The position numbers were made by a program, and so were the translations under genes. This document shows positions 18,137 to 24,294 of a DNA stretch of 64,000 bases, piece by piece. Every line of letters begins with the position of its first letter. The stretch's first letter is position 1. Under the pieces are notes generated by a model, which made no database searches, was not told the origin of the DNA, and worked only from the letters and a program-made list of their open reading frames with translations. The stretch spans positions 224,001-288,000 of the forward strand of contig CM000429.1 of the NCBI GenBank assembly GCA_000165345.1, in the 5' to 3' direction.

Positions 18137-19594
18137 TCACACTGGAGGGTTAAGCAAACTTCTCCTCCAAGAGACAAAAATATCGGGATAAATGTTGTAG
18201 GTTCGCGCCCAAGCAACATTCTTATTGCTCTCGTAATCTCTTTTTCCTTCCTCATATTCTGTTTCTACTTCGTATTCCGTGGTTATTTCTTCTTCACTTT
18301 CTAAGGTACTTGAGACAGAAGTGTCAATATTAGCACAAATAGTTGTAGTATTGCATGAAGGAGCAGTAGTTGAGGCACTTGTATAGCTAATAGCATAAGA
18401 GTAATAATTTGGGTCTATATTAGCTTGGGAGTGAACTTCAAGCTTGCTTGTAATGCTGCTTCCACTGTTGCTATTGGAGCTGTTACCACTGTTATTGTAA
18501 TCTTTGATTGGCTTAAAAGGCTTAAACCCATCGTTTTTATTAGAGCCAGTTAAGTTCAAATTCTCAAGTTCTAGAGTTTTATTACAAGAATCCAAGCAAA
18601 ATTGTTCCACCCTTTCAGGCTTGAAGAACTTGTCATAAGAATCTAAGCCGTTTATAAGCTCTAAATAATGCCCAAAAAGAAACTGAGTTACTTTTGGTTT
18701 GACGGAAAAATCTATTTTATTTCCATATATGATGTACGAAGGAACTCCTTTAGGGAAAAAAGATTGAATTACTTGAAAAGCTTCCCCTTGTCTCTCCTCA
18801 GCATCACAGAGAGACATAAGTGGGAATTGTTTGGCCTCAAGAGATAAAACAATGTAAGGTTTCATCTTTGTCCAATCTAAAGAAATATGACAAAATGGAC
18901 ACTCAGCCCTACATTTATCCCAAATATCATTTTTTGCTGCCCAATATTCTACATGTAAAGCCTTTCTTAGACAATGGTAGCAACTTACGTGTTTGCATAC
19001 CTTAAATCTGGCCTTTGTACTTCTTGGTTTAAACTGATTACAAGAAAAGCAGAAAAAATGTCTTGGCCTCTTATTACCACTATTACAATTATTATTATTA
19101 TTATTGTTATTAATAGCACTAATATTTCCATTAATACTTTTAGTAAATCCATTTCCAGCTAACTCACACTCTTCTTCTATGTTACTAACAATATTTCCGT
19201 CATAGTGATTCTCTCCAAAGTAAGTGAATTTATTGGAAGTATTAATTGGATTCTGCTCAAATTCAGATTTTTTGTTTTGAATCATACCATAATTGTTATT
19301 GATCCATTCTGGTATTAGTGAATAAACTGTAGCAGTAATATTACCACCAATATTATTGATATGAAGCTCATCAACCTCAAATCTATCTGCAACAGAATCT
19401 TGAGCATTATTGGTATTTATATCGCTTTTTGCAGCTTTATAATTAAATGAATGAACTGAATTATATTGTTTCAAATTATTATTTGTGGTAAAGCTTTGCG
19501 AAAATTGTGTACCCTTTGAGTTATTTAATGCCGAAGATAATCCATTTCTTGGGTACGAAGGATATTTCGGTTTTTTTGGAATATAATAATTCAT
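18137..19594 (-). CDS. RING-finger (C3HC4-type) protein with Asn-rich low complexity. It is a paralog of the gene at 21793..24294.
   Basis: CFSCNQFKPRSTKARFKVCKHVSCYHCLRKAL...CPFCHISLDWTKMKPYIVL fits C-x2-C-x11-C-x-H-x2-C-x2-C-xn-C-x2-C. It shares clear similarity with the neighbouring gene on the opposite strand. Confidence 0.6.
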   Translation of the reverse strand: MNYYIPKKPKYPSYPRNGLSSALNNSKGTQFSQSFTTNNNLKQYNSVHSFNYKAAKSDINTNNAQDSVADRFEVDELHINNIGGNITATVYSLIPEWINNNYGMIQNKKSEFEQNPINTSNKFTYFGENHYDGNIVSNIEEECELAGNGFTKSINGNISAINNNNNNNNCNSGNKRPRHFFCFSCNQFKPRSTKARFKVCKHVSCYHCLRKALHVEYWAAKNDIWDKCRAECPFCHISLDWTKMKPYIVLSLEAKQFPLMSLCDAEERQGEAFQVIQSFFPKGVPSYIIYGNKIDFSVKPKVTQFLFGHYLELINGLDSYDKFFKPERVEQFCLDSCNKTLELENLNLTGSNKNDGFKPFKPIKDYNNSGNSSNSNSGSSITSKLEVHSQANIDPNYYSYAISYTSASTTAPSCNTTTICANIDTSVSSTLESEEEITTEYEVETEYEEGKRDYESNKNVAWARTYNIYPDIFVSWRRSLLNPPV

Positions 19595-20241
19595 TTGACC
19601 TTCTATTTGACCTGAATTCTATAATATATAAATATATATTTACATTTATACCAATGTTAATTTTCATGCAAATAACACATATATAAATGAAATCTTTCCT
19701 TATTTACCTGCTTTAGCTTTATTTTCTGAGTTAAATATTCTTTCTCTTCAAATTACTAGTTTCATTAAAAAATTATTAACCTGCGAAACTTCAATTCAAT
19801 ATATACCTTTCAAAATGATGATTAAAAATCTAATACAATTTCTTCATAACATTAAAAATTTTGTATTAAATCATTTCCAGATAGATTACATTTATTTATT
19901 GATTTTCTTCCAACTTATTAAATCCAATAATAAAAACCTTTGATAGCTAGGAAATATTTATATCCTTCAAGTAATACCTAGTTGATCAATTTAAATTCCT
20001 GGCCTTATTCCAATAAAATCAGCCTTAATAGTCTCTGAAAAATTTAGAGGTTTTTAAGAGTTAACTAGCATTCAGTTATTATTGATAATATTCTTTTTAT
20101 TGTTAAATTAATAGGAAAGCCTTTTTTGTAATGGTTAAAAGATCTACCACACAGATATCCTATACACCGCCAAGTTTCATGTTTTTTTAATCTTGTCTTA
20201 TCTTTAGATAGATAACTGATTTTATTTACTTCATGCTTTCA

Positions 20242-21792: not shown

Positions 21793-24294
21793 ATGAATTT
21801 ACAAGGACATAAACGTGGGTTATCATCTCAAAATAAGATAAATAGTTATCACTATTTAAATGGGAAGAAGAATACAATAGCAAATATCTTGTCCAACACT
21901 ACGACTACAAATAATAATTATGGTCTTGTTAATAATGTAGTGAATCAAGATGATAATCGTTTTAAGCCATTAAACAATAATTCTTCAAAGTCGATGGGGA
22001 TTTCTCCTTCCACTACAGCAAAGATGAAATACCATATGGAAGAAAATGAAAATAATAAATCGTCGTTTGGGCTATTTCAACAAGTATCAAGTACAAATTT
22101 AAGTCGTTCTCAAAATAATGTGAGTATAATGAAACAAAATGAAGGATTAAATGGGGGGGGAGTTAATAATTCGAGTACAGGAAATAGTTTATCCAATAAT
22201 CCAAGTATTTCCAATGAACTCAAAGACAAGCCACAATTATCAGGGTTAAATAATTGCAATAGTGGGATACAATCTAATAATAATAACGATTCTAAAAAAA
22301 AGAGGTCAAGAGTAATTTATTGTCATGTTTGTTGTCAATATAAACCAAGATCAACCAGGGCTAGATTTCAAGTATGCCAACATATTGCATGCTATGATTG
22401 TGTCAGACTTGCATTAATGATTCAGCAGAGATATAATGTTAAGGCTCATTGCCCATTTTGCCAAATAGAGTTGGATTGGAATAGGGTTAAGCCTTTTATT
22501 GTCTTATTTAAGCCAAAATCAGAAGCTATTATTGAAGAAGATACTAACAAAACTTTGGCGGATTCAAAACAAGAAACAAATTTGGGAATAGGTTTTAATA
22601 ATAATAATAATTCGATTGGAATGGCTACTAATAGTAATGGTGCAAATAATGCAGTTGTTAATAATAATAGTACGCAAAATGAATCAAATGATTATAATGT
22701 CAATTCTCAAATGATTTCAAATGACTTAATTGCTCAAGCTTTTGAAAGTAATGGAATTTCCAAGGAAAAAATATTAAAAGGATTCTTTTCATGTTATTTG
22801 CAAAAACAAACGCATTTAAGAAATAATGGGTGTATTCTCCAGAATAACAATAATAATAATAATAATAATAATAGTAATAATAATGGTTGCGTTCCTCAAA
22901 ACATATTATATGACTCCAAAGAATTACAAAATACACACACAAACTATTCTAATACACTTGAATCATATAAGATGGCTGGCTCGATTTGCTATGGAGGAGT
23001 TAACAATAAACAGTATATTCCTCTTAAAAATTTTGCTGATCAAAGTATTCTTGTATTACCTAATCTTCAAAATTCTTCTGAGTCATGTGGAGAATTTTTA
23101 CCTGATGTAGGATTGGCGCCAGTTGGGGAAACTTTACCGTTGACAAATTGCATGCACCAAATTGTGGGCACCAAGGAATTTAATCCTTACATTTATGGCG
23201 GGAACTTTAATTCAACAATTTCTAATAATGGTGCTGGAAATAATACCATTGCTCAAAATACAAATATAAGCACTTTTATAAGTGATAATAATCAAATTAA
23301 TTATAGTAGCAGTGGCTGCAATGTTGATTTAAATAATAGTAACAGTAATATTATTAATAGTAGTAATAGTAGTAATAGTAGTAATAGTAGTATTAGTAGT
23401 AGTAGTAGTAGTAGTAGTAGTAGTAGTAGTATTAATAGCAACAACAGCATTTGTGGTAATATAAGTTACAGTGGCAGTACTACTACAACCATGAGAAACA
23501 GTTGCATTGGTATGAGAAATAATAACGTTGCAGGAACGAGGGTTGTTCATGGATCTAATTGCAATTGTACAGGCTGTTTAAAACAAGGAGGAAGAATGGG
23601 AATAACAACATCAATGGGTTTGGGAATGACTCCACCGGGAAGTATATTGAGTACGATTTATGATGAAAATAATCCTCGTGGATTTGTATGTGGTTTGTTT
23701 AATCCATCAATTCCAACAGATGGTGTGGCATTGGTGCATCAAGGTAAGTCAAATAAAAGTCAGCATATTCATTTTGAGCTTCAGAAACAGTTTATGTCTG
23801 ACAGTTTGAATAATTATTCTATTGGCCAAAATGATGGAGCAAGCACTGGTAGAATTAGTAATGGTATTAATACTAATAATAATACAACAAATAATCATTT
23901 TATTCAGCAGCAAAATAATCATTGTACTTCTCAAAGCCAAAGCCAAAGCCATTGTCAAATACCATATTCATTATCAACTTACGGAAATAGCTGTGGAGTT
24001 TCAAGTACTGGCAATAGTACTTTCAATAATATAAATATTGGGAATACTCTATTAAATTGTGATGAAAGTATACCAAATTCATTAACAACATCATATGGAT
24101 TATATAATAATGAAAATATTCGTTTAAGTACTGGAGTATCAGAGATATTTGGATTCTTTGAAACAAGTGAAGATAAGCAAATGCCAAATTGGATGATTAC
24201 AACACCTTATTTAAATATGAAAGATATATTGAGTGATTGGAGGAACTCAACATTATTAAAGACCCATTCTGATATGGTCATATGTTCTATTTAA
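21793..24294 (+). CDS. RING-finger (C3HC4-type) protein with extensive Asn/Ser low complexity. It is a paralog of 18137..19594.
   Basis: CHVCCQYKPRSTRARFQVCQHIACYDCVRLAL...CPFCQIELDWNRVKPFIVL aligns residue-for-residue with the neighbour, including KPRST-ARF and LDW--KP-IVL. It contains poly-N and poly-S tracts. Confidence 0.6.
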   Translation: MNLQGHKRGLSSQNKINSYHYLNGKKNTIANILSNTTTTNNNYGLVNNVVNQDDNRFKPLNNNSSKSMGISPSTTAKMKYHMEENENNKSSFGLFQQVSSTNLSRSQNNVSIMKQNEGLNGGGVNNSSTGNSLSNNPSISNELKDKPQLSGLNNCNSGIQSNNNNDSKKKRSRVIYCHVCCQYKPRSTRARFQVCQHIACYDCVRLALMIQQRYNVKAHCPFCQIELDWNRVKPFIVLFKPKSEAIIEEDTNKTLADSKQETNLGIGFNNNNNSIGMATNSNGANNAVVNNNSTQNESNDYNVNSQMISNDLIAQAFESNGISKEKILKGFFSCYLQKQTHLRNNGCILQNNNNNNNNNNSNNNGCVPQNILYDSKELQNTHTNYSNTLESYKMAGSICYGGVNNKQYIPLKNFADQSILVLPNLQNSSESCGEFLPDVGLAPVGETLPLTNCMHQIVGTKEFNPYIYGGNFNSTISNNGAGNNTIAQNTNISTFISDNNQINYSSSGCNVDLNNSNSNIINSSNSSNSSNSSISSSSSSSSSSSSINSNNSICGNISYSGSTTTTMRNSCIGMRNNNVAGTRVVHGSNCNCTGCLKQGGRMGITTSMGLGMTPPGSILSTIYDENNPRGFVCGLFNPSIPTDGVALVHQGKSNKSQHIHFELQKQFMSDSLNNYSIGQNDGASTGRISNGINTNNNTTNNHFIQQQNNHCTSQSQSQSHCQIPYSLSTYGNSCGVSSTGNSTFNNINIGNTLLNCDESIPNSLTTSYGLYNNENIRLSTGVSEIFGFFETSEDKQMPNWMITTPYLNMKDILSDWRNSTLLKTHSDMVICSI
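22848..22874 (+). repeat. Coding (AAT)9 microsatellite (poly-Asn) inside the RING paralog B
   Basis: Direct read aataataat... Confidence 0.85.
23395..23430 (+). repeat. Coding (AGT)12 microsatellite (poly-Ser), embedded in a longer imperfect AGT/AAT tract 23356..23433
   Basis: A direct read shows a perfect agt x12. The encoded peptide is SSSSSSSSSSSS. Confidence 0.9.

Follow-up and report, generated by a model that had tools for sequence, protein, structure and literature searches.

A divergent RING-type gene pair and its conserved intergenic region on chromosome 1 of Cryptosporidium parvum

The gene pair and its genomic setting

The window analyzed here is a 64,000-nucleotide stretch of Cryptosporidium parvum chromosome 1, and it holds two divergently transcribed genes, cgd1_960 and cgd1_970, that encode paralogous proteins with a RING-type zinc finger. 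The A-type gene, cgd1_960 (18137..19594, minus strand), encodes a protein of 485 amino acids (aa), and the B-type gene, cgd1_970 (21793..24294, plus strand), for which orthologs were also retrieved, encodes one of 833 aa. The region between them (19595..21792; 2198 bp) is common to both genes. A preliminary description, made from the sequence alone, had placed the two open reading frames (ORFs) at exactly these coordinates and lengths, transcribed divergently from a 2.2-kb gap, and all of this was borne out. The A-type protein is identical to EAK88484.1 / CPATCC_000325, and published primers for both genes (Mauzy et al. 2012, PMC3305300, Table S2) have a single match each in the window, at 18993-19014 (minus strand) for cgd1_960 and at 23490-23511 (plus strand) for cgd1_970. 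Given the identity match and the unique primer positions, the 485-aa gene is cgd1_960 and the 833-aa gene is cgd1_970.

The RING nature of these proteins is already on record, and our analysis mostly refines an existing annotation. Both genes are called 'RING finger containing protein' in GenBank and CryptoDB, their orthologs carry the UniProt name 'RING-type domain-containing protein', and both are among the ~50 C. parvum RING-type E3 (ubiquitin ligase) candidates listed by Ponts et al. (2008, PMC2408969, Table S1), who also give 11 UQ_con proteins as the E2 set of this species. Neither gene is mentioned in the searchable text of papers, and we found no published description of their paralogy, their genus-wide head-to-head order, the additional motifs they have in common or the conserved blocks between them. 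The pair is an uncharacterized, lineage-restricted subfamily within a very well known domain class, and nothing about it points to a new kind of mechanism.

BLASTP aligns the A-type and B-type proteins over a single region, with 46% identity over 97 aa (E 8e-26), which agrees with the common RING-type module and the paralogy proposed in the preliminary description. Profile-profile alignment extends the match to 152 columns (E 5.8e-30), running through an AFFPxGV / AQAFExNG motif, and upholds paralogy over the alternative, raised beforehand, that the genes would prove unrelated once aligned properly. An alignment of the module from 11 sequences has 29 invariant columns. The C-termini of the two proteins also match (hhalign, 21 columns, E 8e-4) and have W..Y..DI(F/L)xxWRxS in common, and D.[FLY]..[WL]R occurs exactly once, close to the C-terminus, in every family member tested. 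The view that the proteins are otherwise unrelated is true of BLASTP, which aligns the module only, but it is too strong in light of the 152-column match and the C-terminal motif. The weak similarity at the N-terminus that had been suggested did not materialize, as no similarity was detectable between the N-terminal 110 residues of the two proteins (hhalign E 0.27 over 6 columns).

C. meleagridis, C. bovis, C. andersoni, chipmunk genotype I, C. ubiquitum and C. canis all have the order PNT - ABCE1 - B - gap - A - ankyrin protein, in which B and A are transcribed divergently. A check of copy number at the orthologous loci thus gave two copies, head to head and with the same synteny, in all seven species examined, including C. 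parvum. Since both copies are present in the same order in C. andersoni, the duplication happened before gastric and intestinal species separated; it is older than the Cryptosporidium radiation and not recent. In the window, the neighbors of the pair are cgd1_950, which encodes an ankyrin-repeat protein, on one side and cgd1_980 (25453..27309, minus strand), a homolog of ABCE1 / RNase L inhibitor, on the other. The raw cgd1_950 ORF (16436-17893, plus strand) begins at a TTG and spans 485 aa, by coincidence the length of cgd1_960, and the annotated protein has 481 aa starting from an ATG at 16448.

The family is taxonomically narrow, being confined to Cryptosporidium and a few other eukaryotes. 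Homology searches with the A-type or B-type protein returned only Cryptosporidium orthologs and one further eukaryotic sequence (P0018). With the module profile as query, HMMER searched 1.84 billion representative proteins exhaustively and returned 13 at E<=0.001, nine of which are from Cryptosporidium, three (P0038, P0039 and P0041) are from other eukaryotic data, and one (P0040) is repetitive and looks spurious, so the earlier suggestion of a lineage-specific family holds. The three distant relatives come from a EukProt transcriptome, the TSA set GHVP01 (P0038) and SRA assemblies, with loci in SRR23076771 (L001) and SRR29713746 (L009). One of their contigs has a GC content of 44% and apparent introns inside the RING gene, and this relative is therefore not a Cryptosporidium. 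The same contig carries an ankyrin-repeat gene 8 kb upstream of the RING gene. The RPB11 gene that neighbors a distant relative has best matches of ~45-56% identity scattered across eukaryotes, and this divergence suggests an unsequenced deep lineage. The distant relatives combine A-like and B-like residues with an A-type loop, and they may represent the single-copy state that preceded the duplication.

Conserved elements, variable linkers and the RING module

The conserved core of the A-type protein (aa 175-310; 18665..19072, minus strand) comprises a KRPR basic patch, the RING, an IVL tail and a helical extension with AFFPxGV and LFG. It is 75% identical to the core from C. andersoni and near-identical among intestinal species. 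Its C3HC4 zinc-ligand span lies at 18890..19051 (minus strand; C182..C235), with the ligands in invariant alignment columns. The C-terminal motif YPDIFVSWRRS (18158..18190, minus strand), in which Y469, P470, D471, F473, W476 and R477 are invariant, is the part that aligns with the B-type C-terminus. The RING module of the B-type protein (aa 167-242; 22291..22518, plus strand) consists of a KKKRSR basic patch, the C3HC4 finger (C177..C223) and an IVL tail. Three more conserved elements follow on the plus strand. ISNDLIAQAFExNGxSKEKILKGFF (22717..22803) is the counterpart of the A-type AFFPxGV region, and hhalign pairs it with A-type residues 275-300; RGFxCGLFNPSIPTDG (23677..23724) is near-invariant from C. 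parvum to C. andersoni, with a ratio of nonsynonymous to synonymous substitution rates (dN/dS) of 0.00-0.14; and the C-terminus, MPNWMITTPYLNMKDILSDWRNSTLL..DMVICSI (24181..24291), has a dN/dS of 0.03-0.12 and aligns with that of the A-type protein.

The remainder of each protein is low-complexity sequence rich in Asn and Ser, as had been described, with an N+S+T+G fraction of 0.43-0.51 in the flanks versus 0.08-0.14 in the cores, and its coding DNA carries trinucleotide arrays, (AAT)n and (AGT)n. A scan of both proteins recognized no accessory domain and no Pfam family on the flanks, which agrees with the earlier statement that the flanks belong to no named family. B-type proteins range from 404 aa to 833 aa, and the differences are purely low-complexity insertions. 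The 405-aa B-type protein of C. andersoni keeps every conserved motif, and P0038, a distant relative of 263 aa, has all the family motifs without the linkers. The B-type gene is polymorphic within C. parvum (831 versus 833 aa; positions 22843-22884 and 23344-23431). More than 20 independent short-read assemblies end at one spot inside this gene, 359 codons from its start, apparently at an (AAT)n repeat. The gene is an assembly hazard and could be usable as a typing marker.

Substitution rates estimated region by region between C. parvum and its orthologs (Nei-Gojobori) describe a hyper-conserved core set in relaxed, indel-prone linkers. For the A-type core (aa 175-310), dN/dS is 0.008-0.031, and for the B-type RING it is 0.000-0.014, compared with 0.008-0.011 for ABCE1 and 0.11-0.18 for the ankyrin-repeat neighbor cgd1_950. 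Values are higher for the N-terminal (0.54-0.61) and C-terminal (0.10-0.31) regions of the A-type protein and for the B-type linkers (0.14-0.40), and the flanks of both proteins are also rich in indels. The preliminary description had called the pair fast-diverging and rapidly evolving, a view contradicted by cores as constrained as ABCE1, by linkers that are relaxed (roughly 0.2-0.6) yet below 1 and by a duplication that predates the radiation of the genus. Because dN/dS exceeds 1 in no region, positive selection is not demonstrated. A pairwise dN/dS between the A-type and B-type genes was dropped because synonymous sites are saturated (dS, the synonymous rate, is already >=1.6 between C. parvum and C. 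canis orthologs). The N-terminal region of the A-type gene (codons 1-174; 19073-19594, minus strand) has a dS of 0.17, 0.38 and 0.46 against C. meleagridis, the chipmunk genotype and C. ubiquitum, which is 2-3x lower than the corresponding values for the A-type RING core (0.29, 1.13 and 1.20). This low dS, in a region where dN/dS is ~0.55, could reflect the composition bias of AT-rich low-complexity sequence or nucleotide constraint next to a promoter.

Is the module a RING? The spacing C-x2-C-x14-C-x-H-x2-C-x2-C-x(13/20)-C-x2-C is invariant, with all eight ligands kept, in the 22 family sequences, and all 22 also match the RING regular expression C-x2-C-x(9-39)-C-x(1-3)-H-x(2-3)-C-x2-C-x(4-48)-C-x2-C. 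When the modules were scanned in isolation, 11/11 matched zf-RING_5 (best E 3e-5), and their other sub-threshold matches were nearly all to the RING clan (zf-C3HC4, zf-RING_2, zf-RING_UBOX, zf-MIZ, SLX1_C and others). An AlphaFold2 model of A-type residues 170-320 has a mean pLDDT of 77, with 84-93 for 10-residue blocks of the RING and 54-87 for the extension, and a Foldseek search with this model ranks the RINGs of RING1B, HOIL-1, HOIP and RNF12 first, at E 0.1 or worse. The C-P-x-C of the second loop is invariant across the family, and the residue before the second ligand (C2) is hydrophobic in the B-type protein (C-H-V-C), in the C. bovis A-type protein (C-F-I-C) and in the distant relatives (C-R-I-C, C-G-V-C).

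Several results weigh against this assignment or against ligase activity. No family member reached the gathering score of any Pfam RING model: the full-length window proteins scored 8.2 bits with zf-RING_5 and at best 13.8 bits, with zf-RING_2, against cut-offs near 27, and the isolated A-type module scored 15.1 bits, where Pfam RING cut-offs are 21-28 bits. The nearest approach to a cut-off in the family was that of P0038 to SLX1_C (26.3 versus 27.2 bits). The Pfam check proposed in the preliminary description is thus neither a clean pass nor a clean fail, since all scores are below cut-off but the weak matches fall almost entirely within the RING clan. No PDB sequence matched the module profile significantly (best E 0.3), with RNF4 and TRIM RINGs at E 0.5-6, and the AlphaFold model of the full-length A-type protein, at a pLDDT of 30, is uninformative. 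Structures of c-Cbl, BRCA1 and RNF4 have assigned roles at the interface with the E2 (ubiquitin-conjugating enzyme) to the residue before C2, to a Trp in the central helix and to the 'linchpin' residue after the last Cys. In A-type proteins of intestinal species the residue before C2 is Ser rather than hydrophobic, the position of the c-Cbl-type Trp is occupied by Ala, and the linchpin is H, Q, K, R or Y depending on the member; for these reasons strong stand-alone E3 activity is not assured. The sequence evidence is consistent but weak, and the structural evidence agrees with it and is weak as well; on this basis we regard the module as a true, if divergent, RING-type zinc finger. The hydrophobic residue before C2 in most members, together with the invariant C-P-x-C, argues for a probable E3 activity.

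Comparison with known RING classes places the family near canonical C3HC4 RING E3s (zf-C3HC4, zf-RING_2 and zf-RING_5; RNF4, RING1B and TRIM proteins), with which it has in common the ligand spacing, the C-P-x-C second loop, the central helix after C5/C6 and the predicted cross-brace fold; its nearest structural neighbors are RING domains. Unlike those proteins, the family scores under every curated Pfam cut-off, lacks the helix Trp, has a variable linchpin, and has a distinctive, invariant first loop (K-x-R-S-T-x-A-R-F) as well as a distinctive tail after the RING (D-W..K-P-x-I-x-L). The RBR ligases, represented by RING1 of ARIH2, HOIP, HOIL-1, RNF144A and parkin, differ in having an IBR, a RING2 and a second Cys-rich region; with a single Cys-rich module each and no IBR matches, cgd1_960 and cgd1_970 are not RBR proteins. 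SLX1 combines a GIY-YIG domain with a C-terminal RING, whereas no family member has a GIY-YIG match and P0038 has only ~25 residues before its RING. The SP-RINGs of NSE2/MMS21 lack one of the two zinc sites, both of which are complete here, and the zf-MIZ score of 10.9 bits, against a cut-off of 33.5, places the family outside the SP-RING/MIZ group.

The intergenic region and expression of the pair

The spacer between the two genes is 4x the median inter-ORF distance in the window (547 bp) and the second longest of 29. It had been called unusually long; it is long but not unique, because the gap at 7977-10268 is longer (2292 bp). Orthologous gaps measure 2145, 2197, 2191, 2020, 2380 and 1799 bp in the six other species, a range of 1799-2380 bp over the seven. 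The spacer had also been called gene-free, which is correct in that none of its ORFs exceeds 65 aa and scans for tRNAs and for Rfam families (E<=1) found nothing, but it is not empty. Four blocks in it stand out from a baseline of ~45% gap identity to C. ubiquitum and C. canis.

The most strongly conserved block, CNE1 (21364..21561, plus strand), lies 230-430 bp upstream of the B-type start codon and is 97, 90, 88, 81.5 and 77% identical in C. meleagridis, the chipmunk genotype, C. ubiquitum, C. canis and C. bovis, with a partial match in C. andersoni. CNE2 (20120..20300), located 530-700 bp upstream of the A-type gene, has 79-91% identity out to C. canis and invariant runs of up to 34 nt, and it contains an E2F-type TTGGCGCC at 20245-20252 and a G-box, GTGGGG, at 20288-20293 (minus strand). 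CNE3 (21164..21245), which lies 550-630 bp upstream of the B-type gene, contains two AP2_1 motifs, TGCATGCA, at 21179-21186 and 21220-21227, and an AP2_2 motif, GCACAC, at 21210-21215. CNE4 (19672..19720) is a weaker block ~100 bp upstream of the A-type start codon, with 93, 91, 77 and 76% identity in C. meleagridis, the chipmunk genotype, C. ubiquitum and C. canis. AP2, E2F and G-box motifs are recognized classes of C. parvum upstream motifs (table in PMC12246861). The placement of the blocks suggests that the spacer consists of two extended upstream regions, one nearer the A-type gene with E2F and G-box motifs and one nearer the B-type gene with AP2 motifs and a leader carrying an upstream ORF.

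The upstream ORF (21462..21587, plus strand) lies in CNE1, ~330 nt ahead of the start codon of cgd1_970, and has 41 codons in C. parvum (MPLIEH.ALS..DVRYTVIRG). Six species preserve its ATG and reading frame, and its length varies between 19 and at least 35 codons. The ATG is missing from C. andersoni, and the chipmunk-genotype annotation includes the ORF as a 51-aa gene (L006:3981-4136). Variable columns are distributed 7/8/9 over the three codon positions, and the 70 nt before the ATG are equally conserved. Because substitutions fall evenly over codon positions, the ORF has no coding signature. Folding of CNE1 against shuffled sequences gave z-scores of -0.86 and -1.26 for the two strands, neither of which departs from the shuffles, and RNAalifold found no covariation support (term +0.17). 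A search for transcript-like Logan contigs that would mark the 5' ends found none, as all contigs were genomic and broke at the (AAT)n repeat of the B-type gene.

Across the window, TGCATGCA occurs 33 times versus 1.05 expected and TTGGCGCC 11 times versus 0.17 expected. Overlapping TGCATGCA motifs are created by (TGCA)n microsatellites at 17926-17941, 31655-31666 and 59575-59598, one of which is inside the 244-bp tail-to-tail spacer of cgd1_950 and cgd1_960. Perfect palindromic E2F sites, TTGGCGCCAA, which match on both strands, are found at 34728-34737, 46296-46305 and 56424-56433. The longer gap at 7977-10268 separates another divergent pair, a large protein kinase gene (3978..7976, minus strand) and an A20/AN1 zinc-finger gene (10269..10844, plus strand); it has a TGCATGCA at 8629, and GenBank annotations place a 105-aa gene there. 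Within the cgd1_970 coding region, an E2F-type TTGGCGCC (23113-23120) and an AP2-type TGCATGCA (23149-23156) lie 36 bp apart on the plus strand and encode part of a conserved peptide block, ..DVGLAPVGE..NCMH... Judging from the protein alignment, the chipmunk genotype and C. ubiquitum, though not C. canis, may have kept both motifs, and the pair could be an internal regulatory element or a coincidence.

Both genes are transcribed at low levels from 12 h after infection. In the time course of Mauzy et al. (2012, PMC3305300), cgd1_960 and cgd1_970 give almost no signal at 2 h or 6 h and are first detected at 12 h, with levels relative to 18S of ~1e-7 for cgd1_960, ~1e-6 for cgd1_970 and ~1e-4 to 3e-3 for ABCE1. 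Tandel et al. (2019, PMC6877471) report log2 counts per million for cgd1_970 of 6.0 in asexual stages, 6.5 in females in vitro and 8.3 in females in vivo, so that females in vivo are 1.8 log2 units above females in vitro. Among the differential-expression entries from that study covered here, cgd1_970 appears and cgd1_960 does not, which counts against our joint interpretation of the pair and leaves strict co-regulation unsupported.

Interpretation of the pair

The explanation that we favor, with moderate confidence in it as a whole, is that cgd1_960 and cgd1_970 are two members of a small, lineage-restricted RING family, that they are probable RING-type E3s, and that the spacer between them is regulatory. 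The two genes would go back to an inverted tandem duplication that preceded the divergence of the Cryptosporidium species. Each protein can be pictured as short conserved elements strung along presumably disordered Asn/Ser-rich linkers that grow and shrink freely. The elements are a KRxR patch that resembles a nuclear localization signal, a C3HC4 cross-brace RING with its invariant K-x-R-S-T-x-A-R-F first loop and D-W-x-x-x-K-P-x-I-x-L tail, AF-x-x-x-G-V, LFG and the C-terminal D-I-(F/L)-x-x-W-R. The proteins most likely function as RING-type E3 ligases that conjugate ubiquitin or a ubiquitin-like protein. The RING would recruit a charged E2, and substrates or partners would be bound by the conserved linear motifs, with the nucleus as the probable site of action. 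The two proteins may also work jointly, as a heterodimer. The spacer of 2.2 kb would be regulatory DNA that provides each gene with its own conserved upstream blocks, and the B-type gene probably has a long leader carrying the conserved upstream ORF.

What if the modules are RING-like zinc fingers that lack ligase activity? They could serve as scaffolds for proteins or nucleic acids, as in MAT1/TFB3, BARD1 and BMI1, or act in SUMOylation in the manner of SP-RINGs, and we regard this as unlikely while giving it real weight. The uniformly sub-threshold Pfam scores, the presence of zf-MIZ and SLX1_C among the weak matches (with P0038 so near the SLX1_C cut-off), the variable linchpin and the Ser before C2 in intestinal A-type proteins all lean this way, and the basic K-x-R-S-T-x-A-R-F loop could be a nucleic-acid-binding or phospho-regulated surface. 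However, both zinc sites are intact, unlike in SP-RINGs, the C-P-x-C is invariant, and neither GIY-YIG nor another partner domain accompanies the finger. The majority of structural neighbors are active E3 RINGs bound to E2s, and an E2-binding surface would be expected to show just such extreme constraint in loop 1, the helix and loop 2. A different challenge concerns the spacer, whose length and conservation might be explained by an unannotated gene, either the 41-codon ORF at 21462..21587 or a noncoding RNA. In its favor, conservation is higher in CNE1 (97 to 77% out to C. bovis) than in the coding linkers, the invariant runs of CNE2 reach 34 nt, and the small ORF keeps its ATG and frame in six species and has been annotated as a gene in one of them. 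The even spread of its substitutions over codon positions, its variable length, its missing ATG in C. andersoni and the equal conservation of the 70 nt that precede it speak against a coding gene, as the lack of an Rfam match, a tRNA and a folding or covariation signal does against an RNA gene, and the blocks carry known classes of promoter motifs. We therefore consider a hidden gene very improbable.

A third possibility refines the favored explanation instead of replacing the RING: the two proteins could form an obligate heterodimeric RING E3 with one catalytic and one stabilizing subunit, as in BRCA1/BARD1 and RING1B/BMI1, and their head-to-head retention would then reflect selection for co-expression from common regulatory DNA. 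BRCA1/BARD1, RING1B/BMI1 and RNF20/RNF40 are likewise pairs of RING paralogs that have long been kept together in evolution, and the RINGs of RING1B, BMI1 and BRE1 are among the structural neighbors of the A-type model; genomic adjacency is a feature of cgd1_960 and cgd1_970 and not of those pairs. All seven species examined have retained the copies side by side in divergent orientation, neither gene is expressed at 2-6 h and both are from 12 h, and their RING cores differ at fixed, subtype-specific positions while each is strongly constrained. The Ser (A-type) versus Val (B-type) before C2 is what might be seen in a pair of one inactive and one active RING. On the other hand, Cryptosporidium genomes in general have very stable synteny, which makes retained adjacency weak evidence, the two transcripts differ ~10-fold in level, and cgd1_970 is alone of the two among the differential-expression entries listed. 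The conserved blocks are asymmetric, each being closer to one of the genes, a layout that points to two separate upstream regions rather than a single bidirectional promoter. An obligate heterodimer is on balance doubtful. More speculative still, and a long shot, is its fullest form, a nuclear E3 that is an obligate heterodimer, is confined to Cryptosporidium and a few deep-branching relatives and has its dosage set by a conserved 2-kb control region with E2F-, G-box- and AP2-type elements and a B-type leader bearing the upstream ORF. If that were true, the pair would be a parasite-specific, essential regulator of the intracellular developmental program from ~12 h post infection.

Cryptosporidium has ~50 predicted RING proteins, almost none of which have been studied. 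As members of a divergent RING family and probable E3s, cgd1_960 and cgd1_970 are unusual among them in being restricted to the genus and a few relatives, in having a core constrained like that of an essential housekeeping gene and in having no human homolog detectable by sequence, a profile that is expected of parasite-specific targets in the ubiquitin pathway. Moreover, the conserved blocks between the two genes offer a compact natural test bed for cis-regulation in Cryptosporidium, where the roles of AP2, E2F and G-box motifs and of upstream ORFs are largely unvalidated.

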